DNA from: Thermofilaceae archaeon
GTDB lineage: Archaea; Thermoproteota; Thermoprotei; Thermofilales; Thermofilaceae
Assembly: GCA_038727095.1 (NCBI GenBank)
Contig: JAVYWK010000031.1
Location: forward strand, 1 to 19,647
Direction: 5' to 3'
DNA length: 19,647 bases
A program made the position numbers and the translations under genes. This document shows positions 1,269-19,464 of this stretch, piece after piece (the stretch's first letter is position 1; every line of letters starts with the position of its first letter). Under the pieces are notes generated by a model. The model did no database searches, was not told the origin of the DNA, and was given only the letters and a program-made list of their open reading frames with translations.

Positions 1269-2486
1269 TTAGCCCTGCCTACTCGAGCTCTCCCCGAAGG
1301 CCTTGAGGAACTGCTCCCGCGCCTCCCTAAGGCTTACGCCCTTCCGCCTCGAGTACCGCTCGAGGTCGGCGGCCTCCGGTTTCACCCTAACGATCCTCCC
1401 CTCCCCGTCGTACGCGATCTTCGCTCGCACGCGCTCTCCCGAGACCTCGACTTCAACGGTTTCGCGCCTGAGCTTCAACCTGTCGGCCACGGTCCAGCGG
1501 ACGCCCAGCGTGCCGAGCTCCTTCATCATGAGCTGCGCCAGCTCTCGGGCTCGAGAGGGCTCCGCTAGCACCTGCACTATGAACGCTGGTCTCCCCTTCT
1601 TCCCCACCGCTGGGATCGTGTACACGTCCAAAGCTCCCCTCTCCATCAGGAGATCCCTCGCGTAGGCGAGGAGCTCTCCGTCCACGTCATCAACGTTCGT
1701 CTCGAGCACGGCGACCCTATCGCGGAGCTCGCCGCCGGTTAGCTTCACCTCGTAGGCGATCAGGGGTTGAACCCCGTAATCCCTCGACCCCGCCCCGTAG
1801 CCAACTCTCGCAACCTCGAGCGCCGGCGTTTCAGCCAGAAACTCGTCGGCGAGCGCGGCGAGCACTGCAACCCCGGTTGGCGTCGCCAGTTCCCCCTCCA
1901 CAGGCCCAAGCCGGAAGGGAATCCCCCTTAGCCTCAGGATCTCCCTCGTAGCAGGTGCCGGTGATGAGACTAGCCCGTGCGCTGTCCTGACGGGGCCGCC
2001 GCCGACCGCTACGGGTGTAGCCATTACCCTGCACCCCGCCAACCCTAGACTCTCGATTAGGAGCGGGGCTGCAACAACGTCGAACAGGGTGTCAGCCGAA
2101 GCCAGCTCGTGGAGGTGCACCCCACCGCCACCGTGCACGGCCGCCTCAGCCTCCTCCATGAGCTTGAGAGCCGCCCGAGCTGTCCCGTAGACGTAGTCTG
2201 AGAGGTTGAGAGTCGAGCGGAGCCTTTCGAGAGCAACGTAGAAGTCTGGGAACCCCCTTTCCGCTTCGGTCTCATCGATCCTCAGATCCAGCCTGACGGC
2301 TCGAACTCCAGCCCTTTCCACTCTCTCGAGCGAGACTTTGAAGCCGCGCACCCCATCAAGGACGGAGGGTAGCGCGGAGGCCAACTCGTGTAGCCGGTTT
2401 ACGTCAGCCCCCATGTCCAGCAAGGCGGCGGTGAGCATGTCGCCTGAAACGCCGGAGACCGACGCGTCGATCAGGAGCGCTCGCAT
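1269..2486 (-). CDS. larC: Nickel pincer cofactor biosynthesis protein LarC (nickel insertase)
   Basis: Motifs DASVSGVSGDM..AALLDMG, EAAVHG..VHLHE..SADTLFD, PAPAT, GELATPTG.A, GYGAG, LETNVDD, GKKGRP and GTLGVR; adjacent to larB/larE. Confidence 0.95.
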   Translation of the reverse strand: MRALLIDASVSGVSGDMLTAALLDMGADVNRLHELASALPSVLDGVRGFKVSLERVERAGVRAVRLDLRIDETEAERGFPDFYVALERLRSTLNLSDYVYGTARAALKLMEEAEAAVHGGGGVHLHELASADTLFDVVAAPLLIESLGLAGCRVMATPVAVGGGPVRTAHGLVSSPAPATREILRLRGIPFRLGPVEGELATPTGVAVLAALADEFLAETPALEVARVGYGAGSRDYGVQPLIAYEVKLTGGELRDRVAVLETNVDDVDGELLAYARDLLMERGALDVYTIPAVGKKGRPAFIVQVLAEPSRARELAQLMMKELGTLGVRWTVADRLKLRRETVEVEVSGERVRAKIAYDGEGRIVRVKPEAADLERYSRRKGVSLREAREQFLKAFGESSSRQG

Positions 2487-2499
2487 CCCTCGTCTACCG

Positions 2500-2516
2500 A
2501 AGCGATACTTATCAGC
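2500..2516. promoter_or_regulatory. Putative shared TATA element of the divergent larC / larB promoter
   Basis: The 50-bp intergenic gap has a single AT patch (GATACTTATCA), about 23-28 nt before larB ATG 2537 and a similar distance before larC ATG 2486. Confidence 0.45.
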
Positions 2517-2536
2517 CTTTCCCCCCGAACCCCCTT

Positions 2537-3337
2537 ATGAGTGTCAGGGAGGTTTTGGAGGCGGTAGCGAGAGGTTCGATCAGCGTAGAGGAGGCTGAGA
2601 GGAGGCTTCGCCTGCTCACCCTGGAGATCGTTGGGGACTACGCGAGGCTGGACGTGGGTAGGGAGCTGCGGAGGGGGGTTCCTGAAATCGTGCTAGGCGA
2701 TGTGAAGAGGGTGGACGAGTTGGTCGAGATCATCAGGAGGAAGCTACCAGCCGCAGGCAGAGTGATCGTGAGCAGGGTTGGTAGGAGGAAGGTTGAAGCC
2801 ATCATCGGGGAGTTGAAGCCGGCTAGCTACAGGTACGAGGAGAGGGCCAGAATCCTCGTCGTGTACGGAGAGGGCTTCCAGCCGCGCAAGACGGGTGGAC
2901 GGGTGGCGCTGCTGAGCGGCGGGACCGCCGACATACCCGTCGCTGAGGAGGCCAGGGTCGTAGCGGAGGAAATGGGCTGCGAAGTCAGGTGCTGGTACGA
3001 CGTGGGTGTCGCGGCGCTGCACAGGGCTGTCCAAGCGGTCAGGGAGGCGCTGGAATGGGGGGCTGACGCCATGATCGTCGCCGCGGGCCGGGAGGCGGCT
3101 CTCGCCTCCGTGGTGGCGAGCCTAGCCGACGTGCCCGTCGTAGGGCTGCCCGTGTCCGTGGGCTACGGCTTCGCTGGCCAAGGGTTGAGCGCTCTCGCCT
3201 CCATGCTCCAGTCCTGCCCCCTCGGCCTAGCCGTTGTGAACATCGACGCTGGGGTGGCAGCCGGGGTTTTCGCAGCCATGGTGGCTAACGCGGTGGCGAG
3301 AGCTAGGGCGGCAGGGAGTAAAGGTGGTGGCTCGTGA
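2537..3337 (+). CDS. larB: Nickel pincer cofactor biosynthesis protein LarB (PurE-like carboxylase/hydrolase)
   Basis: Motifs ARLD..RELRRGVPE, GTADIPVAEEA, DVGVAALHR, AGREAALASVV, PVSVGYG and MLQSC..GLAVVNID. Confidence 0.95.
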   Translation: MSVREVLEAVARGSISVEEAERRLRLLTLEIVGDYARLDVGRELRRGVPEIVLGDVKRVDELVEIIRRKLPAAGRVIVSRVGRRKVEAIIGELKPASYRYEERARILVVYGEGFQPRKTGGRVALLSGGTADIPVAEEARVVAEEMGCEVRCWYDVGVAALHRAVQAVREALEWGADAMIVAAGREAALASVVASLADVPVVGLPVSVGYGFAGQGLSALASMLQSCPLGLAVVNIDAGVAAGVFAAMVANAVARARAAGSKGGGS

Positions 3338-4182
3338 CCTCCCCGGGGAGTCAACCCAATAAGCTCGAGAGGCTGATCGAGTGGTTCAAGGAGCTGGGCG
3401 GCCCCGTTGTGGTAGCCTTCTCCGGAGGCGTGGACAGCAGCCTGGTTCTGAAGGCCGCTGCCGACGCTCTCGGCCCCTCCCAGGTGTACGCGGTGACGGT
3501 TGAGAGCCCTCTCCACCCGGCTTCAGAAATCAGGGTTGCGAGGGAGGTGGCCTCGCGCCTGGGGGTCAACCACGTAGTCGTGCGGGGTGACGAGCTCGAG
3601 GACGACAATGTCGTGAGCAACCCGCCCAACCGCTGCTACTACTGCAAGAAGAGGATCGTCGCTAAGATGAAGGAGGTGGCTGCCCGGGTCGGGGCGGTGG
3701 CGATTGTCGACGGTACCAACGCGGAGGACTTGATGGGCCGCAGGCCGGGCCTCAAGGCGCTGAGGGAGGAGGGTGTGAGGAGCCCGCTCCTCGAGCTCGG
3801 TTTCACGAAGAGCGAAGTCCGAACCGCAGCCAGAGCCCTGGGTCTACCGAACTGGGATAAGCCGTCGGCAGCCTGCCTGGCGTCCAGGATCCCCTACGGC
3901 GTGAGGATCACCGTGGATAAGCTCTCTAGGATCGAGAGGGCTGAGGAGCTGGTGAGAGCCATTACGGGCGCGCGGGTCGTCAGGGTGAGGGATCACGGCA
4001 ATGTAGCGAGGATCGAGGTGGGGAGGGAGGAGAGGAAACTCCTCTTCTCCGAGGAAATCATGGACGCGCTGGCGCGCGAGCTCAAAAACCTCGGCTGGAG
4101 GTATATCGCTCTAGACCTGGAGGGCTACAGGACGGGCAGCTTAGATGAAGTGCTTGGGAGAGCGGCTGCGCAAGAAGCCTAA
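3334..4182 (+). CDS. larE: ATP-dependent sulfur transferase LarE
   Basis: PP-loop AFSGGVDS, NPPNRCYYCK, DGTN..D...RPG, SPL, WDKPSAACLASRIPYG, RVRDHG..ARIE and LDLEGYRTGS; 4-bp GTGA overlap with the larB stop. Confidence 0.95.
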   Translation: MTSPGSQPNKLERLIEWFKELGGPVVVAFSGGVDSSLVLKAAADALGPSQVYAVTVESPLHPASEIRVAREVASRLGVNHVVVRGDELEDDNVVSNPPNRCYYCKKRIVAKMKEVAARVGAVAIVDGTNAEDLMGRRPGLKALREEGVRSPLLELGFTKSEVRTAARALGLPNWDKPSAACLASRIPYGVRITVDKLSRIERAEELVRAITGARVVRVRDHGNVARIEVGREERKLLFSEEIMDALARELKNLGWRYIALDLEGYRTGSLDEVLGRAAAQEA

Positions 4183-5554: not shown

Positions 5555-6025
5555 CTATATTTTTGCTTCGTCGATTACTATTTTGGCTATTTTCTTGACG
5601 TCTGCCTCGTAGATGTCAAGTGTGGGTACTTTTTGCAGGTATTTGGATATGTCAATTTCGTAGTCGATTCTTTTCCCAGCTTTCTCCAGGACTTTTGAGG
5701 CGCAGCGGTTGCCACACCCGTTTATGACAATGTTCCTTTTTGCTTTTTCTGCAATTTCCAAGTGTGGCTTTGAGCCTGCCGCAACAGCGGTTATGCAGCA
5801 CATTCTAGCCTTACCCATGTTTGTAAGCAGAACGCCTACTGCATGCCCTATTTGGCCAACGTTAGCTGCTCCGTCGCAAACCCAAACGATATTTTCATGC
5901 TCGGCAACCTTATGGCAAGGTGGAAGAATCTTAGGTGTTGCAGCATCTTTATACTCGTCGGCTAATTTCTTTGGTTTTCCCCGATCATTTCCTCCGTTAT
6001 TCTTCAGAATCCCTTCAGTATTCAT
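5555..6025 (-). CDS. DGC-domain putative zinc-binding protein
   Basis: Cys pattern C-D-G-A-A-N-V-G-Q ... ARMCC ... INGCGNRCASKVLEKAG matches the DGC family. Confidence 0.85.
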   Translation of the reverse strand: MNTEGILKNNGGNDRGKPKKLADEYKDAATPKILPPCHKVAEHENIVWVCDGAANVGQIGHAVGVLLTNMGKARMCCITAVAAGSKPHLEIAEKAKRNIVINGCGNRCASKVLEKAGKRIDYEIDISKYLQKVPTLDIYEADVKKIAKIVIDEAKI

Positions 6026-6260: not shown

Positions 6261-7403
6261 TTATGGGCTTGCCCTTAGAATGGCGCCATTCTTGACGGTT
6301 TGCACCTGCACAATGGATGCTAAAACCGCGTTGTGGATCAACCTTCTAGCCCTCTGTATGCACTGGTTCTCCCTAGTCGGGTGCACGCGGTTGGTCAGCA
6401 GAACGATGAAGATGCCGAGCTCCGGGTCGATCCAGAGGGATGTCCCTGTGAAACCCGTGTGGCCGTACGCTCTGGGTGACATCAAGTCGCCGCAGCTGCA
6501 GGGCCTGCAGTTGAGAGCCCAACCGAGGCCGCGGCACTCGTTGAGGCCCTGCGTGTGGTTTCTCGTGGCGAGCTCCACAGTTAACGGGCTTAGAACCCTC
6601 GCACCGTTGAAGGAGCCCTTGTTGAGCCACATCTGCGCGTAGACGGCTAGGTCGGCCGCTGTGGAGAAGAGGCCCGCGTGGCCAGCCACGCCCCCCATGA
6701 ACCAGGCGTTCTCGTCGTGAACTTCACCCTTCAGAACCCTACCCCTCAGCCTGCAGAACTCCGTCGCAGCGGCCCGCTCCTTGAGATCCCCCTCTGGGTT
6801 GAAGGTTGTCTCACGCATCCCTAAAGGCTTGAGCACCAGCTCGCTAACCACCCTGTCTAGGCTCTCTCCCGTCACCATCTCGATTATGCGGCCGAGCAGG
6901 ATGAAGCCCAGGTCGCTGTAGACAACCTTTGAGCCGGGCTCGTACTCAAGGTTCACGCTGGCAACATAGCTGTAGACCTCCTCCCTCCTCGACAGGAGGG
7001 AGTAGAGGGGGAGGTGGGCCGGTAAGCCTGAAGTGTGCGTGAGCAGGTGCCAAACCCTCACTCTGGCTTTCGAGCCGCTACTGAAGGCTGGGAAGTACGT
7101 GGAAACCGGGTCGTCGAGGCTCAGCTCACCCCTCTCCACGAGCCTTAAGACGACCGGCGTTGTGGCGACAACCTTCGTCAAGCTGGCTAGATCGAAGACA
7201 GCGTCTGTAGTCATGGGGCGCTTCTCGGGGAATAACTGGGAGTACCCGTAGGCCCTATACAAGACCACCCGACCGCCCCTCGCCACGAGCAGGACGGCAC
7301 CGGGGAAGCAGCCAGCCTCAACCAGGAGCGTTAGAAGGTGATCGACCGTGGCCAGCCTCTCAGGGTCGAAGCCGTGCTCCTCGGGCCTACCGCTGGGGAG
7401 CAT
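6261..7403 (-). CDS. Beta-lactamase (AmpC)-fold serine hydrolase; likely AmiE/NamA-like N-acetylmuramyl-L-alanine amidase
   Basis: SxxK (FDLASLTK), LLTHTSGL, YSDLGF, GEVHDENA, GHAGLFS, GHTGFTGT and LLTNR. Divergent from murK-murQ-namZ; no signal peptide visible. Confidence 0.8.
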   Translation of the reverse strand: MLPSGRPEEHGFDPERLATVDHLLTLLVEAGCFPGAVLLVARGGRVVLYRAYGYSQLFPEKRPMTTDAVFDLASLTKVVATTPVVLRLVERGELSLDDPVSTYFPAFSSGSKARVRVWHLLTHTSGLPAHLPLYSLLSRREEVYSYVASVNLEYEPGSKVVYSDLGFILLGRIIEMVTGESLDRVVSELVLKPLGMRETTFNPEGDLKERAAATEFCRLRGRVLKGEVHDENAWFMGGVAGHAGLFSTAADLAVYAQMWLNKGSFNGARVLSPLTVELATRNHTQGLNECRGLGWALNCRPCSCGDLMSPRAYGHTGFTGTSLWIDPELGIFIVLLTNRVHPTRENQCIQRARRLIHNAVLASIVQVQTVKNGAILRASP

Positions 7404-7414
7404 GGTGGAGCCAC

Positions 7415-7432
7415 GTTAAAGAGAATAATAAC
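7415..7432. promoter_or_regulatory. Putative bidirectional TATA region between the amiE-like gene and the murK operon
   Basis: AATAATA at 7424-7430 is 20-26 nt before GTG 7450 on the + strand. Read as TTATTATT on the - strand, it is about 21-28 nt before ATG 7403. Confidence 0.5.
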
Positions 7433-7449
7433 CCTTGCTCGTTGCCGCT

Positions 7450-8412
7450 GTGGGGGAGAGGCGCCTAATAGTGGCTGTGGACGGTGGGGGCAGCGGGTCG
7501 AGAGCCCTCCTTTTCGGCTGCGATGGGAGCGTGCTCTCCCTGCACAAGGGGCCCCCGTTGAACTACGCGGTCCTGGGGCCTACAGCCTTCACCGCGAACC
7601 TGGGGTTGCTGCTGAGACCCGTTTCTGAGTTTTCCGGCGCGATCGAAGGGTACGTCTTCAGCCTAGCGGGGGTATCGGCGTACAGGGGGGAGGTTGAGCA
7701 GCTGCTGCGGAGGGAGCTCGGCGTGGAGCGCGTCTGGCTTCTCACGGACGTTGAAGCGGCGTACATGGCCGCTGCTCGCGGGCGGGATGCCATCGTGGTT
7801 TCAGCTGGAACCGGCTCCTTCGCCTACGGGAGGAGGGCTGGCAGGGAGGCGAGGGTTGGTGGCTGGGGCTACCTGTTCGGTGACGAGGGGAGCGCCTACT
7901 GGATCGGTAGGGAGTTCGTCCGCAGGTGCTTGATGCACTACGACGGCAGGCTGGCGGAGGGTGAGCTCTCCCTAAAACTCCTCCTGGAGGAACTCCACGC
8001 ACCCAACGTCAGGGACGCTCTGGCGAAGCTGTACAGGGAGTACACGCCCCCCAGCAGGGTTGCGGAGCTGGCGAAGGTTGCTTGCAAGGCTGCTGAGCTG
8101 GGGTGCCCGATGGCTCTCGACCTGATCGGGGACGCTGCCCGGCTGCTGGAGCAGATGGTTTCAGCGGTTGCTGAGCTGTTGGGCTTCACGGGGGAGGTAG
8201 ACGTCTACGGGACCGGAGGGGTGATCATCGGCTGCAAGCCCCTCGCGGAGGCCTTGAGGCGCGAGGTTGAGTCGAAGCCAGGGAGGAGGTTCCACGTGAG
8301 ACCCGCACCACCCCTGCTCGGCTGCGTCCTGCACTACCTCCACTCTGCCAAAGGTCTTGGCGTGGACGAATTGGAGAAGGTGAACCTTGAAATACCAACT
8401 GAGGATTACTGA
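7450..8412 (+). CDS. murK: BadF/BadG/BcrA/BcrD-family sugar kinase; MurK-like N-acetylmuramate/N-acetylglucosamine kinase
   Basis: Motifs VDGGGSGSRA, SLAG, TD, SAGTGSFAYG, RVGGWGYLFGDEGSAYWIG and GTGGV; directly upstream of murQ. The ORF track starts at TTG 7435; in-frame GTG 7450 fits promoter spacing better. Confidence 0.82.
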   Translation: MGERRLIVAVDGGGSGSRALLFGCDGSVLSLHKGPPLNYAVLGPTAFTANLGLLLRPVSEFSGAIEGYVFSLAGVSAYRGEVEQLLRRELGVERVWLLTDVEAAYMAAARGRDAIVVSAGTGSFAYGRRAGREARVGGWGYLFGDEGSAYWIGREFVRRCLMHYDGRLAEGELSLKLLLEELHAPNVRDALAKLYREYTPPSRVAELAKVACKAAELGCPMALDLIGDAARLLEQMVSAVAELLGFTGEVDVYGTGGVIIGCKPLAEALRREVESKPGRRFHVRPAPPLLGCVLHYLHSAKGLGVDELEKVNLEIPTEDY

Positions 8413-8416
8413 TCGC

Positions 8417-9352
8417 GTGGGCGAGGGGACTTTCGAGCTGCTCGCGCGCCTCGAGACGGAGCAGAGGAACCCTATCAGCGAGAGGCTCAGCGAGCTGCCG
8501 ACGATAGAGATCCTTAGGATCATCAACGAGGAGGACAAGAAGGTCGCCTACGCGGTGGAGCGCGCGCTACCCGAGATCGCCAAGCTCGTCGATACGATCC
8601 TAGAGGCGATCAGGAGCGGGGGGCGCTGGATTTACGTGGGGGCTGGGACGAGCGGGAGGCTCGCGGCAATCGATGTGGCTGAGCTTCTCTCCACCTACAA
8701 CGCGGGGCCGGAGACCGTCGAAGCTCTCGTGGCGGGCGGCCCTGGAGCAATGGTGAGACCGATTGAGGGGGCGGAGGACGATGAGGAAATGGCGGTGAGA
8801 GAGCTGAAAGCTAGGAGGATACGCGAGGGGGACGTCGTGGTCGGCATCAGCGCGAGCGGGCGGACCCCCTACGTTGTGTCAGCGCTCCGCTACGCGAAGA
8901 GCGTCGGGGCGAAAACGGCGATTATCACGAGCGTCGAGAACTCCCCCGCTTGCGAGTACGCCGACATAAGGATCGTCCTGAGGACGGGGCCGGAGGTAGT
9001 GACGGGCTCAACCCGTATGAAGGCGGGTACCGCGCAGAAGATGGTTCTAACGATGATCAGCACGGCTGTCATGGTGAGGTTGGGGAAGGTTCACGGGAAC
9101 CTGATGATCTCCCTGCAGCCGGTCAGCGGGAAGCTCAGGGAGAGAGCGAAGAGGATACTCATGATGGAGGCCGGAATCGATTACCGGAGCGCCTCAGAGA
9201 TTCTGGAGGAGGCCAACTACAGCCTGCCGGCCGCCATCGTCATGGCGGTAGCGGGCGTCAGCTACGAGGAGGCTTTGCGCTACCTCGAGCAGGCGAACTA
9301 CATCCCCGTGAAAGCGATAGAGCTGGCGAAGGGTGGTCGCGTTGAGGGTTAG
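8417..9352 (+). CDS. murQ: N-acetylmuramic acid 6-phosphate etherase
   Basis: Motifs TEQRNP, GAGTSGRL, EGAED, GISASGRTPYV, GPEVVTGSTRMKAGTAQKMVL and GKVHGNLM..KLRERA. The ORF track starts at 8387; GTG 8417, just after the kinase stop, is preferred. Confidence 0.95.
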   Translation: MGEGTFELLARLETEQRNPISERLSELPTIEILRIINEEDKKVAYAVERALPEIAKLVDTILEAIRSGGRWIYVGAGTSGRLAAIDVAELLSTYNAGPETVEALVAGGPGAMVRPIEGAEDDEEMAVRELKARRIREGDVVVGISASGRTPYVVSALRYAKSVGAKTAIITSVENSPACEYADIRIVLRTGPEVVTGSTRMKAGTAQKMVLTMISTAVMVRLGKVHGNLMISLQPVSGKLRERAKRILMMEAGIDYRSASEILEEANYSLPAAIVMAVAGVSYEEALRYLEQANYIPVKAIELAKGGRVEG

Positions 9353-10553
9353 GTTGGGCTTGGAAAGCCCGGAGCTGGGGAAGCTCCTGGCAGGCAAGAA
9401 GCTGGGGATCGCCACCAACCACACGGGGGTTACCCCCGAGATGAGGCACATAATCGAGATTGCAGGTGAGCACGGGGAGGTTGAGGTGGTTTTCACTCCC
9501 GAGCACGGGTTGTGGGGTTCAGCTGCAGCCGGCGAGCTTGTCTCATCGAGAGTGGATGAGGAGTACGGCGTGAGGGTCTACAGCCTCTACGGAGAGACCC
9601 TGGAGCCACCCACCGAGGAGCTGCAGAAGCTGGACCTCGTCGTATACGACGTCCAGGATCTAGGGCTCCGCTGGTACACCTACGCATCAACGCTCTACTA
9701 CACCGTTAAAGCGTGCGCTAAAGCGGGCACCTCCCTGCTGGTCCTCGACAGACCGGCTCCACTGACGGGGGTAGTGACGGAGGGGCCGGTCCTCGATCCC
9801 ACCTACAAATCCTTCACCGGGTTGGCTAGAATCCCAGCCCGCTACGCGTTAACCCCCGGCGAGCTAGCCCTCTACTACTCGAGAGTTGAGGGGCTGGGTG
9901 GTGAAGTTCACGTTGCCAGGATGGCGGGTTGGAGGAGGGAGATGTGGTTCGATGAGACAGGGCTCCCCTGGGTTCCCCCTTCACCCAACATCCCGAACCT
10001 TGAGGCAGCCCTCGTCTACGCTGGAGCCTGCCTACTCGAGGGTACGAACCTGTCCGAGGGTAGGGGGACGGCTTCGCCCTTCCTCCAGTTTGGAGCACCC
10101 TGGATCCGGGCGAGGAGGCTCGCTCAAGCTCTCAACAAGCTGAGGCTGCCCGGGGTAATCTTCCGCCCCGTCAAGTTCGTCCCTACAGCGAGCAAGTACA
10201 GGGGGCAGGAGTGCGGGGGCGCCTACGTGCACGTTACCGATCGGTCGGTTTTCAGGCCCTTCGTGACCTTCATCGAGGTTCTCAAGACCGTGAAGCGCCT
10301 CTACGGGGACCGCTTCCACCTCATGAGTAGGGAGCACGAGCAGCAGGTAGAGTACTTGAAGGACTACACAGGCTGGTCGAGCGGGACCAGCCGGTACGCT
10401 ATCGATTACCTCGCCGGTACCTCGAGGGTCCGCGAGTGCATCGAGGGGTTGAGGGGCGTGGAGGAAGCTGAGGAGGAGTGGAGGAGGGAAAGAAACGAGT
10501 TCATCGAGAAGGCGCAAAGCGTCCTCTTGTACGAAGGGGGGCTAAGGCCTTAA
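9333..10553 (+). CDS. namZ: Exo-beta-N-acetylmuramidase NamZ family (DUF1343 / YbbC, GH171)
   Basis: Motifs TNHTG, PEHG, SLYG, YDVQDLGLRWYTY, LDRP.P, TPGELA, WVPPSPNIP and EGTNLSEGRGT..PF..FGAPW. The true start may be TTG 9342, after GGGTGG. No signal peptide. Confidence 0.93.
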   Translation: MVALRVRLGLESPELGKLLAGKKLGIATNHTGVTPEMRHIIEIAGEHGEVEVVFTPEHGLWGSAAAGELVSSRVDEEYGVRVYSLYGETLEPPTEELQKLDLVVYDVQDLGLRWYTYASTLYYTVKACAKAGTSLLVLDRPAPLTGVVTEGPVLDPTYKSFTGLARIPARYALTPGELALYYSRVEGLGGEVHVARMAGWRREMWFDETGLPWVPPSPNIPNLEAALVYAGACLLEGTNLSEGRGTASPFLQFGAPWIRARRLAQALNKLRLPGVIFRPVKFVPTASKYRGQECGGAYVHVTDRSVFRPFVTFIEVLKTVKRLYGDRFHLMSREHEQQVEYLKDYTGWSSGTSRYAIDYLAGTSRVRECIEGLRGVEEAEEEWRRERNEFIEKAQSVLLYEGGLRP

Positions 10554-11236
10554 AGCTCTCTAAGCGCCTGCCTCAGCTGCTCGCTCGGCGCCATGAGGGC
10601 TTGGGCGTACCTGAACCCCGACTCGATCCCCCTGATCCTGAAGAGGCAGCTGTAGTACTCGATGTAGGAGAAGCCGGTCTCCCCCCTGGCGAAGGCGTAG
10701 GCGCTCGCCGCCTCCCTCCACACTTCGAAGGTCTCACCGATGTCGACGTACACGTTCGGCCGGTAGCCTCGAGGATCCTCCCAGTTCTCAGCGAAGAAGA
10801 GCCTTCGAACCCGGTGGGCAGGCCTCTCCCTCTTAACCGCTGGTAGCGCAGCATAGAAGAGCGCGTCCAGGACGTTCCTGTACGTGTTCGCATGATCCCT
10901 GTGGATGCTCCCTCGCCAGTGCGTGATCAGGATCTCGGGCTTGTACTCCCTGATCAAGTCGCAGAGCCTAAGCTTCACCTCCCTGCTCACGGGCAGCTCC
11001 CCATCCCTGTAGGGGAGGAAGACAGCTTCAGCCCCCAGGATTCTGGCCGCGTTTTCCGCTTCCCTACGCTTTTGCTCACCGTACTCCTCCTCGGAGAGCG
11101 TGGGGTGCCCTTTCTCGCCCAGCGTCATGTGAACGATTACGACCCTATGACCGGAGCGGGTCAGCTTCGCGATTAAGCCGCCGCACGTGACCTCAGCATC
11201 GCCGGCGTGGGCTCCGACAACCATCAACTTGACCAC
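10550..11236 (-). CDS. PIG-L / LmbE family N-acetylhexosamine deacetylase
   Basis: Motifs VVGAHAGDAE..CGG, MTLGEKG, EAENAARILG, DGEL, IREYKPEILITHW and HRDH. Its stop overlaps the namZ stop in TTAA at 10550-10553. Confidence 0.88.
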   Translation of the reverse strand: MVKLMVVGAHAGDAEVTCGGLIAKLTRSGHRVVIVHMTLGEKGHPTLSEEEYGEQKRREAENAARILGAEAVFLPYRDGELPVSREVKLRLCDLIREYKPEILITHWRGSIHRDHANTYRNVLDALFYAALPAVKRERPAHRVRRLFFAENWEDPRGYRPNVYVDIGETFEVWREAASAYAFARGETGFSYIEYYSCLFRIRGIESGFRYAQALMAPSEQLRQALREL

Positions 11237-11237
11237 G

Positions 11238-12188
11238 TTAGATCACCCTCCTCATGATGAAGTACCTGCGCGTCACTTTAAACCCGAAGCGCGAGTACAA
11301 GCGCGCCGCTTGCTCATCGGTCCAGAGGACGAAGGCGTTGTGAATACCCCTACGCCTCATCTCCCAGAGGCAGCGCGCCAGCAGCACCGTGCCGATCCCC
11401 TTGCCCCGCATATCCTCCCTCACGCCGAAAGGCCCGAAGTGCGCTCCAGGCTTGTGCCAGTGGTAATCCTCGCTGTGCCAGTACTGGCAGTAGCCGACAA
11501 CTTCATCCCCCTTCACCGCTACCAGGATCTGCCCTTTCTCGCAGCCGCTCTGGAGGAGCTCGAGAGCGTGCCTGTACCAGTCGGCCGGGAAGCTCCTCTC
11601 CAGGAACCTGAGGAGCGGGTAAACGTCCCTCGTCTCGAGGAGCCGAACCTTAACCCCCTCCCCCTCCAGCTTCTTCTCCAGCTCTTCGACCTCGGCGGGC
11701 AGCGTATAGTCAGGCCACAGCTGGGCATCCATGCTTAAGGCTTCATACAGCCTTACGAATCCGTGCCTCTCAAGCAGCTCCAGCAGCCACGCGTACCTAT
11801 CGGGATCAACGCCTGGGAAGAAGTAGTTTGGAGTATAAGGTGAAAACAGTACTTCACTCCGTTTCTTCTCCTTAAAGTATTCCAGCGAGCTTTCCATTAA
11901 AGCTGTTCCAGCATCGGGAAAACTGGGATCGTATGCGAAAGCCGTTATCCACCCGCGTTCCCCTTCCAAACCCTGGTAGAAGAGAGGGTATCTACGAACA
12001 ACGCAGAGGCTGAAACCCTGAATCCCCTCTTTACTGACTGCTATTTGCAACCCTTTTTCATCGAAGTTGGGGTCGAGGAGTATTTTTCTCTCGAAAACTG
12101 AAACCGATATAGGGTCGTGCTTAAGCCACTTGTTCCAACACTCCACAAGTTCCTCCTCCAAGCCGGGCTTGTAGTTGACGATCTCCAT
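11238..12188 (-). CDS. Tandem-domain GNAT N-acetyltransferase (GlmA-like)
   Basis: Acetyl-CoA motif FGPFGVREDMRGKGIGTVLL plus AARLYSRFGF; a degenerate N-terminal GNAT domain; YFFPGVD linker. Ends 1 bp before the deacetylase start. Confidence 0.85.
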   Translation of the reverse strand: MEIVNYKPGLEEELVECWNKWLKHDPISVSVFERKILLDPNFDEKGLQIAVSKEGIQGFSLCVVRRYPLFYQGLEGERGWITAFAYDPSFPDAGTALMESSLEYFKEKKRSEVLFSPYTPNYFFPGVDPDRYAWLLELLERHGFVRLYEALSMDAQLWPDYTLPAEVEELEKKLEGEGVKVRLLETRDVYPLLRFLERSFPADWYRHALELLQSGCEKGQILVAVKGDEVVGYCQYWHSEDYHWHKPGAHFGPFGVREDMRGKGIGTVLLARCLWEMRRRGIHNAFVLWTDEQAARLYSRFGFKVTRRYFIMRRVI

Positions 12189-12211
12189 AGGTCATCGTCA
12201 CTCTCTTTGAG

Positions 12212-12228
12212 GAAATGCTTTTATATGT
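12212..12228. promoter_or_regulatory. Archaeal TATA box (TTTTATAT) with upstream purine-rich BRE-like GGAAA; probably serves the divergent genes
   Basis: TTTATAT at 12220-12226 is -29..-23 of ATG 12249. On the - strand it reads ATATAAAA about 31-38 nt before the GNAT ATG 12188. Confidence 0.6.
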
Positions 12229-12248
12229 TTGTATCGAAATCATTATTA

Positions 12249-14348
12249 ATGGAGAAAACTCGTGAGATAGTCGTCCCTGAATATCGTCCTGGAATCACCA
12301 AAAAGAGCCTTACCTTGACGGTATTACTACTGGCTGTGTACATCCCACTTTCTGCTATTGTCAGGCTATACACGGATAAACCTTCAACTTTTGCTGGTTT
12401 TGTCTTACCAATGATCTATGTAATATTTGTTCTAGAATTCATCGGAAGGCTCAATCCTAGAATGCGTTTCTCACCGCAAGAGTACGCTTTTATTTTTGCT
12501 GTATTAGCCATGATAACAGACACAAGTTACTTTCTCTTTCATGCATATGCAAATGAGTATGGCTTAGGCTGGACGGCGCCCGCTCTTAGTGATTTCGCAG
12601 CTTTCGGCTTGTCTGATCTTAGGGACTTTTGGAGCAAAGCCGTTCCCGCCGTTATCGTATCACCCGAGCCCCTCCGCTTCACGATCGGAGAAATGCTCCA
12701 GCACGGGAAAGCTGCAGGCCAGCAGGTTCCATGGAGCAGTATTACACCTGTAGTGTTCTACTGGGGTCTAACCCTGCTCTTTTACAGCTTCATCAGCATC
12801 TTCGTTACGTTCTGTTTTACGAAACCATGGGTTGAGGAAGAGCGCCTGGTATTTCCTCTGGCAATACCAAACGTTTACCTGCTACGCGAAGCTGGAACCG
12901 TTACCACCGGTAACAAATCAAGCCTTTTTGACATAAGCCTCGCTCGCACGAAGGTGTTCTGGGCCCTCTTCGTCATAGGTTTCGTGAGCAGTATTTATGT
13001 CGTCGTAAGCGAGATACTACCAGTATTCCCGATAGGAGCATGGTGGGGTGAGACGAACGTACCCCTATACTTTCTAGCATCGCTCTGGCCTGGGACTTAC
13101 GCTGCCGGGATATTCTTCCTACCTCAGCTGGCAGTGAGCTTGATGCTTACGAATGATGTCTTGATCACTACCATACTTGGGTGGATCATCTTTGGTCTTC
13201 TATATCAGGGTATAGGCGTTACACTCGGCGTTATACCCTATCGCCCAGGCATGGAGTTCGTCTGGCCTTGGGAGGATAATCCAGGCGGATGGCTACCGTT
13301 TCCATACAGATACATAGGACAGGACGGTGTGGCTCTTTCCATCGCTTTATGGATGATCTACAAGTACAGGAAAAGAATAGTGTCGTTCTTCTCAACCCTT
13401 TGGCGCGAGAGCGAGGCCGAGTTCGGGGTCCCACCTAGGCTGATTTCAGCGCTCTTCGTTGTTGGCTTTTTCGGGTGGTATCTCGCGATGCTTATCGAGC
13501 AGGCAGACCCTGTAGTAGCTCTCTTAGTACCGATATGGGCGTTCCTATTTAACATCATGTACGCAAGGGTCTATGCAGAGGTGTTTTGGCACAACGGAAC
13601 GGGATGGGGGGATGCTTGGCAGTTGACGTATTTCTTCGGTCAAGCGGTCAGAGGCTGGCCGCGGGTGGAAGCAATAACTTGGGATAGCCCAAATACTAAT
13701 CCGGCGTGGTTCACGATCGCAAGGCATACGTCGAATTTCGATGAGTGGGTTATATCGTTTGGGAGCATGTCATCGGGAATTCAAGCTTCTTTGTACAAGG
13801 TAGCTTACGACTTAAAGATGAGAATGCGCGACTTGTTGGTTGCGATGCTCATCGGTTTAGTCGCAGTTGCATTCGCCCTGATCCCGCTGCAGGTATACTT
13901 CGTTTTCAACACGAAGGGCGGGCTCAGTTCGCTTCCCTTGTATGCCAGTTGGTGGCCGTGGATAGCTGCGGGACGCTGCCATAGAGGTTACTGGGTTGGG
14001 GCGGGTATCACGCCGACTCACGTAATTTGGCTGCTGTACGGAGTGGGGCTGCTGATAGGACTAGGCTGCTATCTTCTGAAAAGTTTCGTCCCATTCTTCT
14101 GGTTCATCAATGTGCCAGCGCTGTATGTTTCGTTAACGATCGTAACGTATATGTGGCTCACGTCGCTTCTAGCGCTTATAATAAAGTTCGTAGCAGTGAG
14201 AACGGTTGGGATAAAAAGGTACGAGGAGTACGTAATGTCAGCCGTCGCTGGCTTAACATTAGGATTTGGCGCTGCATGGCTTTTCGCGTTATTAATAAAC
14301 TTTGCAACAACTATCTGGCCAAGATTTTTAGCGTTTTATCAGCCGTAG
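12249..14348 (+). CDS. Polytopic membrane protein, DUF6785/DUF6784-like (OPT-related putative transporter)
   Basis: 699 aa with many hydrophobic segments and motifs FSPQEY..IF, VPWSS...VVFYW and KPWVEEERLVFPLAIP, recalled from this family. The ORF track starts at 12117, which overlaps the GNAT; ATG 12249 has a TATA box at the right spacing. Confidence 0.7.
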   Translation: MEKTREIVVPEYRPGITKKSLTLTVLLLAVYIPLSAIVRLYTDKPSTFAGFVLPMIYVIFVLEFIGRLNPRMRFSPQEYAFIFAVLAMITDTSYFLFHAYANEYGLGWTAPALSDFAAFGLSDLRDFWSKAVPAVIVSPEPLRFTIGEMLQHGKAAGQQVPWSSITPVVFYWGLTLLFYSFISIFVTFCFTKPWVEEERLVFPLAIPNVYLLREAGTVTTGNKSSLFDISLARTKVFWALFVIGFVSSIYVVVSEILPVFPIGAWWGETNVPLYFLASLWPGTYAAGIFFLPQLAVSLMLTNDVLITTILGWIIFGLLYQGIGVTLGVIPYRPGMEFVWPWEDNPGGWLPFPYRYIGQDGVALSIALWMIYKYRKRIVSFFSTLWRESEAEFGVPPRLISALFVVGFFGWYLAMLIEQADPVVALLVPIWAFLFNIMYARVYAEVFWHNGTGWGDAWQLTYFFGQAVRGWPRVEAITWDSPNTNPAWFTIARHTSNFDEWVISFGSMSSGIQASLYKVAYDLKMRMRDLLVAMLIGLVAVAFALIPLQVYFVFNTKGGLSSLPLYASWWPWIAAGRCHRGYWVGAGITPTHVIWLLYGVGLLIGLGCYLLKSFVPFFWFINVPALYVSLTIVTYMWLTSLLALIIKFVAVRTVGIKRYEEYVMSAVAGLTLGFGAAWLFALLINFATTIWPRFLAFYQP

Positions 14349-14874
14349 AACATAATATAAATATTTTTAATATTTTATTTTTAATCTCATATTCAAGGAG
14401 CAAGAGAAGTCAATAACAGGGAGAATAAAACGAAAACGCCTCTGCATCGACAGGCTTAGGCATGTCGCTAGAGATGCTGATAATTTTCAATGCTTCACTC
14501 ACTGACTGCCCATGTTTTATATGGCTCTTAAAGATGGTCAAACTTAGAATTTGCGGCATCTTAACTTTGATTATGACTTGGGGAATCATTCATCGGAATT
14601 AATTGAATGAGAACCTCTCAGGCAAAGGAATCGATATCTGTCGTGCTTAAACTGTTCTTTACGATCGGCCTAAAGCCCCCTTTAAAGCGAGTCTGTAGCT
14701 AATAATCGTATTACCCTCTAAACCTTTTTAATTTATTTAATTTCTGAAATGTGAAATCATAGTTTACTTTTCTAGTAATAATTTATGAAAAGTTTAATAA
14801 ATAATTTTAGAATAAAACATGTTCCGTTAAAAGAGCAGGCATATTATCCGGAGATCAGCTATCATCGAGGGAAC

Positions 14875-17226: not shown

Positions 17227-17870
17227 GTGGAGATCCTCCATCAGGCAGCGAAGGCAGGCGACGTTGACCACGTGAGAACCCTCCTCGAGCGCGGATGGAG
17301 CGTGAACGCGAGGGATTTGAAGGGATGGACGCCGCTGCACTACGCAGCAGTCTTTGGACACGTAGAGGTTGCGGAGCTCCTCATCAAGTACGGGGCTGAT
17401 GTCAACGCTAGGGATCGAAAAGGGCTTACGCCTTTGTACTACGCGGTCAAGGAAGGGAATTTCAATGTTGCTGAGCTTCTCCTCCAGCAGGGCGCGGACC
17501 CCAGAGTCAAGGATAAGAGGGGGTGGACTCCGATCCATTACGGCGCGAAGAAGGCAAAGCTGCGGGTCGATCAGATTCTCGCGGGGGTGCCGCCCCCGCT
17601 GAGGATCGTCAGACTGCTGCTGGAGAGTGGTTCTGACCCTAACGCTCAAACGCGCGAGGGGCTCACGCCGCTGCACATCGCGGTCCGCCGCAGCAATGTC
17701 GCATTGGCTAAGCTGCTCCTCGATGCTGGTGCTAGCCCGAACATGCCCGACAAGAAGGGTTGGACGCCTCTGCACTACGCTTACCGCTACGGTGACGAGG
17801 AGCTCATCGAGCTGCTACTGAAATACGGTGCCAACACGGGTGTAAGGGACAAGAAGGGTAGGACTCCGCC
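17227..17870 (+). repeat. Six ankyrin repeats (protein level) plus a partial seventh
   Basis: ILHQAA, GWTPLHYAA, GLTPLYYAV, GWTPIHYGA, GLTPLHIAV, GWTPLHYAY and GRTP at about 33-aa spacing; the fourth repeat carries a ~13-aa insertion. Confidence 0.9.
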
Positions 17871-19464
17871 GATGCTGCGTAACACCCGCACCATCCTTAG
17901 GCGCGGGGCCAAGCCGATGAGTTTGAGCGGGATCCTCGCCAGGGAGGCGACGTACAGATCCAGGAAGGAAAGGGGGGAAATCCCAATCCGGGGTATCGAC
18001 CTCTTTGCTCTGGCCTGGACGGTATTCCTGATACTCTTCTCCCTCTTATTTGGGGTCATTTTCGCCTACTTCATCTATGACGGTTACTTGGAGTTGATCA
18101 CCTCCACCTTTTTCCTTTTCACGCTATCCATGCTGCCCGGGCTCGCGCAAATGGCTCTGAACACGCACGTGATCATCGCCGACAAGCTGATAGATCCGCT
18201 ACTCCACCTACCCGTCAGTTGGGGGAACCTCCGTTGGGCACTGGTCAAGCAGGCCTTCATATGGGGAGGCTTCTCGCCCCTTTTCGCCTTCATCCCAGCG
18301 GCAATCGTGTACTTGGCCGTTCGAAAGAGCCTCGCTGTACCCCTAGGGCTTGCGCTAACCGGGATCTTTGCGACACTCTTGGCGGTTTCGCTAGGATACT
18401 TGATCGGCTCTTACGTAAGCAAGTACACGAGGAGCCTGCTAAGGAGGATCGTATCTACTGTGGTATGGGTCCTGATCCTGGGGTCAGGCCGCATCCTCGA
18501 CCTGTTGAATAACTTATTTGTTAAAGCTGTTTTGCCACTTGATAGCGCCCTGATGAGCATGATTCCTCCCTTCTGCTTCCTACATGTGACGCGTAACGCG
18601 CTTTCACTCACCGTGTCCGTCGCATTGCTCGCTGCATCCGTGTGGCTGACCCGCTTCTCCGTGCGCAGGTTCGTGAGGGCGGCGACAGTGGCAGAGATCT
18701 ACGCGCCCCCGCCCGCTCTCTCGTGGAGGGTAAGCGCGAGGGCTCTGATGCCCACGCTTAAGGAGTTGAAGATGGTTGCTAGAGCACCGAGGATGATGGC
18801 ATTGATCATCACCCAAGCCTTGCTACCCTCGCTACTCCTGATTTACTGGATTCTGACCGCGCTGAGACAAATGCTCACCTGGTGGTTCGAACCCTCTCTA
18901 TCAAACGCCGCCACAATGGTGATCATGATGATGTTGGTATCGATAGGGATCTTTCAGGCTCTCCAGGGCGTCTACATCATGTTCGTCGCCGAGGCGGCGA
19001 ACGCTAGGACGCTATACCTGCTCCCGTTGACGAGGTTGAACGTTGCGCTATCGAAATCCCTCGCCCTACTACTCATGTGCCTCCCGTTCATCGTAGCAGC
19101 CTCAGCGGTTGCCGCGATATTCCTGAACGCTTCAGCGGGGTTGGTTTACGCGGCGGCCACAGTCGGCTCAGTATTGCTGGGCGGCTTGATCCTCGCAATG
19201 TGGGCTCCGCGGGAGCCCTCAGACTGGAGCCGAGAGACCTACAGCCAACTCAAACTCATCGTGGCGTGGCTCGCTCTGCTTACCCCTCTCATAGTTTTGT
19301 TATCGCTTCCCCTGCTACCCCTGCTGCTCCCGATGTATCCCAAGCTGTGCGAGATCGTGCAGTTCCTCTTTGACCATGGACACTTCTTCCTGCTAGCCTA
19401 CCTTGTAGCGCTGTACGTGAGTGGCACGCTAGTGGCGGTGCTGATAAGCAGAGACCCAGTGTAG
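17227..19464 (+). CDS. Ankyrin-repeat domain fused to a polytopic ABC-2-type permease-like domain
   Basis: Six ANK repeats (G.TPLH.A...G..E...LL..GA..N..D) in about aa 1-215. These are followed by about 515 aa with many TM helices and duplicated LLHLPVS / LYLLPLT motifs typical of ABC exporter permeases. Confidence 0.75.
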   Translation: MEILHQAAKAGDVDHVRTLLERGWSVNARDLKGWTPLHYAAVFGHVEVAELLIKYGADVNARDRKGLTPLYYAVKEGNFNVAELLLQQGADPRVKDKRGWTPIHYGAKKAKLRVDQILAGVPPPLRIVRLLLESGSDPNAQTREGLTPLHIAVRRSNVALAKLLLDAGASPNMPDKKGWTPLHYAYRYGDEELIELLLKYGANTGVRDKKGRTPPMLRNTRTILRRGAKPMSLSGILAREATYRSRKERGEIPIRGIDLFALAWTVFLILFSLLFGVIFAYFIYDGYLELITSTFFLFTLSMLPGLAQMALNTHVIIADKLIDPLLHLPVSWGNLRWALVKQAFIWGGFSPLFAFIPAAIVYLAVRKSLAVPLGLALTGIFATLLAVSLGYLIGSYVSKYTRSLLRRIVSTVVWVLILGSGRILDLLNNLFVKAVLPLDSALMSMIPPFCFLHVTRNALSLTVSVALLAASVWLTRFSVRRFVRAATVAEIYAPPPALSWRVSARALMPTLKELKMVARAPRMMALIITQALLPSLLLIYWILTALRQMLTWWFEPSLSNAATMVIMMMLVSIGIFQALQGVYIMFVAEAANARTLYLLPLTRLNVALSKSLALLLMCLPFIVAASAVAAIFLNASAGLVYAAATVGSVLLGGLILAMWAPREPSDWSRETYSQLKLIVAWLALLTPLIVLLSLPLLPLLLPMYPKLCEIVQFLFDHGHFFLLAYLVALYVSGTLVAVLISRDPV

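Follow-up and report, generated by a model that had tools for sequence, protein, structure and literature searches.

The stretch of DNA analysed here (the window) is the complete 19,647-bp contig C31 of the host genome G000, which amounts to 1.86 Mb in 52 contigs and is rated 92% complete and 0.9% contaminated. Within positions 6261–12188 the window carries six genes for soluble enzymes, recognised from open reading frames (ORFs), Pfam and NCBIfam, that are proposed to allow the host to use N-acetylmuramic acid (MurNAc) from bacterial peptidoglycan. The host is an archaeon: contig C1 of G000 carries archaeal small-subunit (SSU, 1456 bits) and large-subunit (LSU, 1166 bits) rRNA genes, each of which outscores its clan rivals. 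A sequence-only reading of the window had called the six enzyme genes and a seventh, for a large membrane protein, and ORFs, Pfam and NCBIfam agree on the positions of all seven. The features are as follows.

6261..7403, minus strand: AmiE/PBP4B-like serine hydrolase with a beta-lactamase fold, 380 residues (PF00144, E 1.3e-80).
7404..7434, no strand: divergent spacer of 31 bp between the hydrolase gene and the kinase–MurQ–NamZ operon; AT-rich, with TATA-like boxes, read directly.
7435..8412, plus strand: MurK-like sugar kinase of the BadF/BadG/BcrA/BcrD (ASKHA) family (PF01869, BcrAD_BadFG ATPase).
8387..9352, plus strand: MurQ, N-acetylmuramic acid 6-phosphate etherase (TIGR00274, 319 bits).
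9333..10553, plus strand: homologue of NamZ, the exo-beta-N-acetylmuramidase of glycoside hydrolase family 171 (GH171), 406 residues (NamZ_N and NamZ_C).
10550..11236, minus strand: PIG-L/LmbE-family deacetylase (PF02585, E 6.1e-31).
11238..12188, minus strand: GlmA-like tandem GNAT protein (GNAT by Pfam in the C-terminal domain, and alignment to 5kga/5kf1).
12249..14348, plus strand (likely ATG start; maximal ORF from 12117): DUF6785 multi-pass membrane protein, strain-variable.

The kinase, murQ and namZ genes overlap in operon fashion, by 26 nt at the kinase/murQ junction and 20 nt at the murQ/namZ junction, and the true start of the kinase may be an in-frame GTG at 7450. The AT-rich, TATA-like boxes, seen by eye in the spacer 7404–7434 and upstream of 12249, are putative promoters. 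A 1836-nt contig from one metatranscriptome (RNA-library) run covers positions 8810–10645 with approximately 97% identity (57 mismatches), and takes in the 3′ part of murQ, all of namZ and the 3′ end of the PIG-L gene. Stretches of the window left uncovered in single sequencing runs carry no information. None of the six enzymes, taken as maximal ORFs, has a signal peptide or membrane anchor. Consequently, the pathway must begin with the import of fragments, and hydrolysis would be cytoplasmic.

The hydrolase gene adjoins the cluster in G001, G002, G003, G004, G031, G025, G405 and G081. Its best NCBIfam model is PBP4B (248.4 bits, against 107 bits for the runner-up family), which is the product of Escherichia coli yfeW, a gene linked to murQ. 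In the S-x-x-K motif, Ser74 and Lys77 are each conserved in 31 of 31 homologues, as is Tyr162, and His315 of an H-T-G motif is conserved in 30 of 31. The N-terminus has no hydrophobic leader and falls at residue 31 of PDB entry 7uda in the alignment. It is proposed that the enzyme is a cytoplasmic MurNAc-L-Ala amidase, or a peptidase that cleaves stem peptides.

The best PDB matches of the kinase are a MurNAc/N-acetylglucosamine (GlcNAc) kinase, 8zo3 (E 1.6e-23), which from its name is assumed to be clostridial MurK, and the Sulfolobus tokodaii hexokinase 2e2n (E 1.5e-22). Its only NCBIfam match is a NagK model, far below cut-off, and Tannerella forsythia MurK is not among its PDB matches at E ≤ 1e-5. 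The alignment to 8zo3 reveals DGGGS, GTGS and GGWG-x3-GDEGS motifs. The S. tokodaii hexokinase would clash with the lactyl ether of MurNAc, as its catalytic Asp is preceded by a His and the position of I69 in T. forsythia MurK is occupied by an Asp (PMC10465942). A pocket for the lactyl group was taken to need a small residue before the catalytic Asp, nothing bulky at 133–135 and no Asp at the I69 position. The window kinase has Thr104 before the catalytic Asp105 (compare Thr94–Asp95 of T. forsythia MurK), GGW, and Ser at the I69 position, all mapped by motif alignment rather than superposition. A non-cluster paralogue on G000:C16 has the His–Asp pair and the Asp at the I69 position of the S. 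tokodaii hexokinase; another, L094:15-719, also has His–Asp, and the stretch with the I69 position is missing from its sequence. Among 18 cluster-linked archaeal kinases, the residue before the catalytic Asp is Thr or Ser in 15, Gly in one and His in two. At the level of motifs, these residues point the right way, favouring acceptance of MurNAc, and the protein is proposed to be a MurNAc/GlcNAc 6-kinase.

MurQ scores at equivalog level with TIGR00274 (319.2 bits, cut-off 302), matches PRK05441 (373.8 versus 168 bits), contains SIS domains and aligns to Haemophilus influenzae MurQ (1nri/4lzj) with an E value of 2.3e-73. Residues Glu99 and Glu130 are kept in all 18 aligned sequences, and the H. 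influenzae enzyme shares them. They would correspond, by a constant offset of 16, to the catalytic Glu83 and Glu114 of E. coli MurQ. The window protein is thus predicted to convert MurNAc 6-phosphate (MurNAc-6P) to GlcNAc 6-phosphate (GlcNAc-6P) and D-lactate.

NamZ combines NamZ_N (E 2.1e-70) and NamZ_C (E 2.7e-48) and matches PDB entries 4k05 and 4jja. Residue Glu57, in a PEHG motif, is kept in 91 of 100 sequences, and Arg244, in a GRGT motif, in 97 of 100. The conserved residues of Bacillus subtilis NamZ are Glu92, at the tip of strand 2, and Arg279 of the C-domain (PMC8054146); both window residues lie 35 positions below these, a correspondence mapped by offset and not by direct alignment. 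Unlike the founding member, the archaeal protein has no secretion signal, and its stop-to-stop frame of 410 residues leaves no room for a leader. This is a difference of location, not of fold. The order of enzymes that had been proposed from the letters alone fits these families and their conserved catalytic residues.

The steps after GlcNAc-6P go beyond the earlier proposal. NagA, the usual GlcNAc-6P deacetylase, gave no TIGR00221-type match in G000, G001, G002 or G003, and in G031 it scored 95.8 bits (cut-off 225.65); tblastn with a NagA-like neighbour from other archaeal loci found nothing in G000. The PIG-L protein is a candidate replacement. It adjoins NamZ in G001, G002, G004, G046 and G081, and other archaeal NamZ loci carry Amidohydro_1 in its place, with no locus seen to have both. 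The nearest PDB matches of PIG-L are the LmbE-related 2ixd, TT1542, BshB1 and diacetylchitobiose deacetylases (8bgn, 3wl4), and it scores 108 bits with the BshB1 model, below the cut-off of 182. Its GAHAGDAE and HRDHAN segments align to the metal-binding A-H-x-x-D and H-x-D-H regions of 2ixd. With no NagA match in the genus, the PIG-L protein beside NamZ is predicted to be a deacetylase of GlcNAc-6P, GlcNAc or both that replaces NagA.

For the next step the one candidate is a 340-residue double-SIS protein encoded on G000:C10, which equals the isomerase half of GlmS and matches the NagB-II and GlmD models below their cut-offs. A search of four genomes of the genus found no full-length GlmS. 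The isomerase half alone (340–360 residues; 247–267 bits, cut-off 418) occurs in three of them and was not found in G002. In G000 (C10:47949-50996) the SIS gene adjoins an acyl carrier protein (ACP)-like gene and a gene that by eye resembles GlmU, with a left-handed helix. The genus either makes glucosamine 6-phosphate (GlcN-6P) from ammonia or relies on amino sugars that it scavenges, and the pathway may feed glycan synthesis as much as glycolysis.

For the tandem GNAT protein, Pfam detects the C-terminal GNAT domain only. Residues 14–309 align end to end with residues 12–308 of the 328-residue chain of 5kga/5kf1 (E 3e-13). Next comes 4zm6, a GH3 N-acetylglucosaminidase that includes a glucosamine (GlcN) N-acetyltransferase region, and NCBIfam gives weak MshD matches as well. 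Clostridium acetobutylicum GlmA re-acetylates de-N-acetylated wall sugars. Entry 5KF1 is a GlmA glucosamine N-acetyltransferase (PMC10936415), and the window protein is correspondingly proposed to be a glucosamine or glucosaminide N-acetyltransferase.

As had been expected of an archaeon, the genes for making MurNAc appear to be lacking: MurA, MurB_C and Mur_ligase_M were not found in G000, G001, G002, G003 and G031 (84–95% complete). Therefore, the MurNAc must come from outside. The same five genomes yielded no PTS_EIIC, GH25, GH73, SLT or Amidase_3, and AnmK, a gene resembling diaminopimelate (DAP) decarboxylase and a NagZ-type GH3 were not found in G000. The GH3 genes that G000 does have were rejected as NagZ: their products are of the long glucosidase type (743–955 residues) with 26–30% identity to a NamZ-linked GH3 of 534 residues. 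Its gene content suggests an organism that scavenges soluble fragments rather than one that kills. In the same five genomes the MurA model TIGR01072 had no match at all, not even the sub-threshold 5-enolpyruvylshikimate-3-phosphate (EPSP) synthase matches obtained in each of four archaeal controls; G000–G003 and G031 may lack the shikimate pathway.

It is likely that this hot-spring Thermoproteota archaeon uses, in its cytoplasm, the MurNAc of bacterial peptidoglycan from fragments released by other organisms. This reading draws on the gene content of the cluster, the enzyme families and their catalytic residues, the lack of leaders, conservation across archaea and the lack of detected MurNAc-synthesis genes. 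Soluble MurNAc-GlcNAc, MurNAc-peptides and free MurNAc would be imported by a transporter. The AmiE/PBP4B-like serine hydrolase would strip the stem peptide, and NamZ would free MurNAc at the non-reducing end. The BadF-type kinase, in place of the bacterial phosphotransferase system (PTS), would then form MurNAc-6P, and probably also GlcNAc-6P, and MurQ would split MurNAc-6P into GlcNAc-6P and D-lactate. PIG-L, standing in for the absent NagA, would yield GlcN-6P, from which the GlmS-isomerase-half SIS protein of C10 could produce fructose 6-phosphate and ammonia, or which could pass to UDP-GlcNAc. The GlmA-like GNAT would re-acetylate de-N-acetylated amino sugars for entry into the pathway.

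Strong MurQ homologues (55–98% identity) were found in 15 of 41 related genomes, and the four core genes recur in the same order in G001 and G003. An even sample of the phylum Thermoproteota, 401 genomes, was surveyed as well: NamZ_N was detected in 42 (20 of 161 genera) and MurQ in 38, with both in 36, NamZ only in six and MurQ only in two. As related genomes are not independent, these are counts and not statistics. The nearest named NamZ records are labelled ‘uncultured Sulfolobales archaeon’ (78% and 75% identity), ‘Thermoprotei archaeon’ (47%) and Bathyarchaeia (44–45%); the remaining 74 of the 80 listed NamZ loci are bacterial, with 34–47% identity.

Twenty-six archaeal NamZ loci were examined, including the window and its near-twin in G002. 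Recurrent neighbours are AnmK (six loci), a 530-residue GH3 (four), an ornithine (Orn)/DAP-decarboxylase-like gene (three) and an Opp-type ATP-binding cassette (ABC) transporter with a family-5 binding protein (three). Among 122 ORFs within 5 kb of NamZ in the 24 loci other than the window and twin, there are four Amidohydro_1 and two D-2-hydroxyacid dehydrogenase genes. CitMHS transporters near NamZ, initially counted as three, were reduced on a re-scan of 10 ORFs to one, L108:13627-15033. The recurrent neighbours are further parts of peptidoglycan salvage, for anhydro-MurNAc, GlcNAc ends, diaminopimelate and D-lactate, and the G000 cluster is a reduced set relative to other archaeal NamZ loci.

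In a NamZ tree of 100 sequences, 20 of the 27 archaeal rows form one clade (SH-aLRT, an approximate likelihood-ratio support, of 90) that has no bacterial member and branches by genus, then order, then phylum. Bathyarchaeia and one further family lie elsewhere among the bacteria. A MurQ tree of 19 rows shows the same groupings. Both trees are unrooted, the bacterial NamZ rows are the 80 nearest pattern matches and thus a biased sample, and the short rows L069 and L072 were dropped. The bacteria-free NamZ clade and the matching MurQ groupings indicate at least one old acquisition, since inherited as a unit; this bears out the suggestion of an old acquisition. There were probably two to four acquisitions in total. 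Transfer would have run from bacteria to archaea, judging from the substrate and function and from the mainly bacterial range of the families. The odds are roughly even that approximately one-tenth of the sampled Thermoproteota, including Bathyarchaeia-type and hot-spring lineages, carry an ancient intracellular MurNAc pathway that was kept together by inheritance within the phylum and whose back end was rebuilt with archaeal parts (a kinase for the PTS, PIG-L as a novel type of GlcNAc-6P deacetylase for NagA, and a GlmS-half deaminase).

The large membrane protein, which had been read as a cluster member, does not belong to the conserved set. It is a DUF6785 protein with approximately 13–16 hydrophobic segments. 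In G002, window positions 12175–14831 are replaced by 188 bp, with 97% nucleotide identity on both flanks; DNA contigs from two studies bridge the DUF6785 insertion and a contig from a third joins across it, so that this 2.7-kb indel is polymorphic in hot-spring populations. The gene has a tetranucleotide correlation of −0.04 with the genome, below the 1st percentile of random pieces, with AGG making up 29% of its Arg codons and a GC content at third codon positions (GC3) of 0.54. The family has seven matches in G000, six besides the window copy, and a homologue lies within 10 kb in only one of 20 other archaeal NamZ loci. Two of the G000 paralogues (within C10:8685-15195 and C10:58501-64936) lie directly downstream of genes for Peptidase_M28 + MacB_PCD + FtsX proteins of 1419 and 1480 residues, which suggests an uncharacterised membrane peptidase/permease system made up of DUF6785 paralogues and these M28/FtsX giants. 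The gene in the window is a recent, variable and compositionally foreign insertion, and DUF6785, considered as the importer, was rejected as a conserved member of the cluster given the indel, its polymorphism, the composition and the other partners of this multi-copy family. As a lead only, one Atlas cluster of the DUF6785 family contains 11% OPT-family members.

The best importer candidate in G000 is an Opp-type ABC operon at C14:20048-25929. All five of its components are 70–78% identical to those of an operon directly downstream of MurK–MurQ–NamZ in G031, and an orthologue of its solute-binding protein lies approximately 1.3 kb from NamZ in G013. Close orthologues of the operon also occur elsewhere in G003, and the neighbours of the operon on C14 are uninformative. 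It is retained as a candidate only.

Taken as a whole, the cluster is best described as an archaeal version of the known bacterial MurNAc recycling pathway, intracellular and kinase-based, with a PIG-L/SIS back end. A PTS-independent kinase route is common to it and to C. acetobutylicum MurK and GlmA, and the best PDB matches of this type are distant (8zo3, E 1.6e-23; 5kf1, E 3e-13). In 2011 Reith and Mayer reportedly described clostridial murK and glmA as neighbours that serve wall recycling. The Thermococcus chitin pathway uses Dac, a PIG-L deacetylase, and GlmD, an SIS-type GlcN-6P deaminase, and is alike in having PIG-L plus an SIS-type deaminase for NagA plus NagB. It differs in deacetylating unphosphorylated sugars and is not known to have MurNAc-specific enzymes.

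The B. subtilis murQ-murR-murP-amiE-nagZ-namZ (ybbC) operon holds the same MurQ, NamZ and AmiE-type hydrolase in one cluster, and both systems would trim exo-lytically from the non-reducing end before the MurNAc-6P etherase acts (PMC8054146). The place of the hydrolytic steps differs: NamZ, AmiE and NagZ are secreted there and MurNAc enters through the PTS protein MurP (PMC8054146), whereas the archaeal enzymes are leaderless and hydrolysis here would be cytoplasmic. The archaeon also has no detected PTS_EIIC, NagZ-type GH3 or NagA and has the kinase, PIG-L and GNAT instead; it makes no peptidoglycan, hence scavenging rather than recycling. Tannerella forsythia, with MurT–MurK–MurQ and NamZ1/NamZ2, likewise does not synthesise MurNAc and takes it from neighbours (PMC10465942; bioRxiv 2021.12.02.470905). 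It shares the kinase and etherase, NamZ-type exo-muramidases and a Thr before the catalytic Asp of the kinase (PMC10465942). However, T. forsythia builds its own wall from scavenged MurNAc, whereas wall-synthesis genes were not found in the archaeon.

Secreted archaeal peptidoglycan hydrolases that kill bacteria have been described (PMC12352652), and these are likewise bacteria-derived, wall-directed enzymes in archaea. In contrast to those lytic enzymes, the present cluster is the downstream intracellular part, with no GH25, GH73, SLT or Amidase_3 found. That paper (PLoS Biol 2025) asks whether archaeal wall enzymes serve the scavenging of environmental peptidoglycan, and MurQ, NamZ, MurNAc and catabol- occur nowhere in its main text. 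In its accessible main text, the NamZ paper names only bacterial phyla and the word ‘archaea’ does not occur (PMC8054146). A Natrarchaeobius genome paper lists GH171 among its carbohydrate-active enzymes (CAZymes) without comment (PMC12343721). In agreement with the sequence-only reading, no archaeal MurNAc catabolic pathway, described or predicted, was found in the full-text literature searched, a scope that excludes subscription journals and supplements.

Several explanations other than MurNAc catabolism by the archaeal host have to be weighed. The cluster might be bacterial DNA that was mis-binned or mis-assembled into an archaeal genome, on a contig that is chimeric or a contaminant; after all, the window is an entire 19.6-kb contig of a 52-contig bin, no rRNA or other examined marker lies on it, and the enzyme families are typically bacterial. 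The composition fits the genome. The tetranucleotide correlation with the rest of the genome is 0.954 for the cluster (6261–12188), against a median of 0.915 for random 6-kb pieces, and 0.97 for the whole contig. In the six enzyme genes AGG makes up 48–65% of Arg codons and GC3 is 0.71–0.82 (43% and 0.69 in the long ORFs of the genome); the GC-rich, AGG-heavy style ascribed to the cluster therefore applies to these six but not to the membrane-protein gene. Furthermore, the whole window is colinear, at 97% nucleotide identity, with part of a 125-kb contig of the congener G002, gene order is identical in G001 and G003, and G004 has a reduced form without MurK and MurQ. Hot-spring metagenomes from at least seven studies contain nearly identical DNA. 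Elsewhere in the phylum, a 1.08-Mb contig of G120 carries an archaeal 16S rRNA gene together with the MurK–MurQ–NamZ trio, and the closed 2.08-Mb chromosome of G099 carries both 16S and NamZ. With a bacteria-free NamZ clade that tracks genus, order and phylum and a concordant MurQ tree, a contaminant or chimera is close to refuted; contamination is excluded for practical purposes, and the contig is genuine, as had been supposed.

There is a small probability that the enzymes act on something other than MurNAc from peptidoglycan, for example a 3-O-substituted amino sugar of archaeal or environmental origin, oligomers of chitin or chitosan, or a thiol of low molecular weight. The pairing of PIG-L with a tandem GNAT that weakly matches MshD is reminiscent of MshB/MshD, PIG-L is nearest to BshB1 (below cut-off) and chitobiose deacetylases, and the kinase is close to a broad-specificity hexokinase. 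Against this, MurQ scores at equivalog level, MurQ and NamZ occur together in 36 of the 44 genomes having either, AnmK, which is specific for anhydro-MurNAc, is present in six archaeal NamZ loci, and no MurA or MurB was found to make MurNAc endogenously. GH171 is not known to include activities other than that of an exo-muramidase. It was on an exo-muramidase that GH171 was founded (PMC8054146). The main rival, which is unlikely though less so than another substrate and does not exclude catabolism, is that the cluster serves mainly amino-sugar salvage, in which MurNAc and GlcNAc from debris would pass through GlcN-6P to UDP-GlcNAc for the host's own glycoproteins and not to carbon and energy. 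This would resemble the MurNAc scavenging of T. forsythia, but for GlcN. It gains from the lack of full-length GlmS in the genus, where only the isomerase half was found, and not even that in G002, from the ACP-like and GlmU-like neighbours of the SIS gene, and from the MurA-family search, whose lack of an EPSP-synthase-like match hints at a scavenging lifestyle. However, the isomerase half could make GlcN-6P from fructose 6-phosphate and ammonia, so that auxotrophy is not implied, and salvage and catabolism use the same steps and are not mutually exclusive. The D-2-hydroxyacid dehydrogenase and DAP-decarboxylase-like genes at other archaeal loci suggest that lactate and peptide parts are also used. 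Feeding on wall debris may be the purpose, as had been claimed, and so may salvage, given that full-length GlmS was not found in the genus. Overall, the sequence-only reading holds in its main lines, with three qualifications concerning the membrane protein, the cytoplasmic site of hydrolysis, and feeding versus salvage.

Other points weigh against cytoplasmic MurNAc use as set out above. The substrates, the role of PIG-L, the importer and the purpose, feeding or salvage, are all inferred, as are the enzyme activities. The hydrolase falls under the PBP4B cut-off (248.4 versus 385 bits), and the kinase fits the general archaeal hexokinase 2e2n almost as well as MurK. PIG-L is closest to bacillithiol-type (GlcNAc-malate) and chitobiose deacetylases without known GlcNAc-6P activity, and the GlmU-like neighbour of the SIS gene suggests a biosynthetic role more than a catabolic one. 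Without a NagZ-type GH3 and AnmK, fragments with GlcNAc or anhydro-MurNAc ends may be unusable in G000. For the importer of MurNAc fragments there is only a candidate, the C14 operon, of which no close orthologue was found in G001, G002 or G004. Relatives also have eroded clusters: G004 (L093, G004:C95) retains the hydrolase, NamZ, PIG-L and GNAT without the kinase or MurQ, L010 and L011 retain the hydrolase, kinase and NamZ with no MurQ between, and NamZ occurs without MurQ in the closed genome G099 and in its family. The RNA-library contig is compatible with co-transcription in a close relative, and DNA carry-over is possible in such libraries. Finally, the genomes of the genus are metagenome bins, 90–95% complete.

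Other features of the window are also of note. LarC, LarB and LarE, for synthesis of the nickel-pincer cofactor, lie just upstream at 1269–4182, and a LarA-like gene lies on another contig (G000:C52:1833-2228). A link to MurQ-derived D-lactate through lactate racemisation is conceivable, and there is no evidence of a functional link. To the left of the cluster, a DGC-domain gene at 5555–6025, with 100% protein identity in G002, sits in an island of low GC (0.44), where AGG makes up 20% of Arg codons. At 17227–19464 a 745-residue protein, 97% identical in G002, has N-terminal ankyrin repeats followed by approximately 12 hydrophobic segments, an architecture unusual for an archaeon. In the RNA-library run X18, one contig joins position 16361 back to 14875 with eight extra letters, that is, the end of a fucose-isomerase-like gene to its own start, and this gene has the highest contig depth of the run. 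A circular molecule, an artefact of assembly or a tandem copy present in a relative could explain the join.

Peptidoglycan is among the largest pools of bacterial necromass, with MurNAc as its tracer, and its breakdown is usually credited to bacteria. The enzymes of the cluster are small, soluble and easy to express, so that the claim is directly testable, and they would supply a thermostable MurQ, NamZ and MurNAc kinase and possibly a non-orthologous GlcNAc-6P deacetylase. A conserved archaeal MurNAc route would place archaea among the consumers of peptidoglycan in sediments and hot springs. Archaeal wall-directed enzymes would thereby gain a nutritional purpose that can be tested, a question that PMC12352652 leaves open. 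If the reading is true, archaea would be regular consumers of bacterial wall debris, and the question of nutrition raised for archaeal wall enzymes would have its answer.

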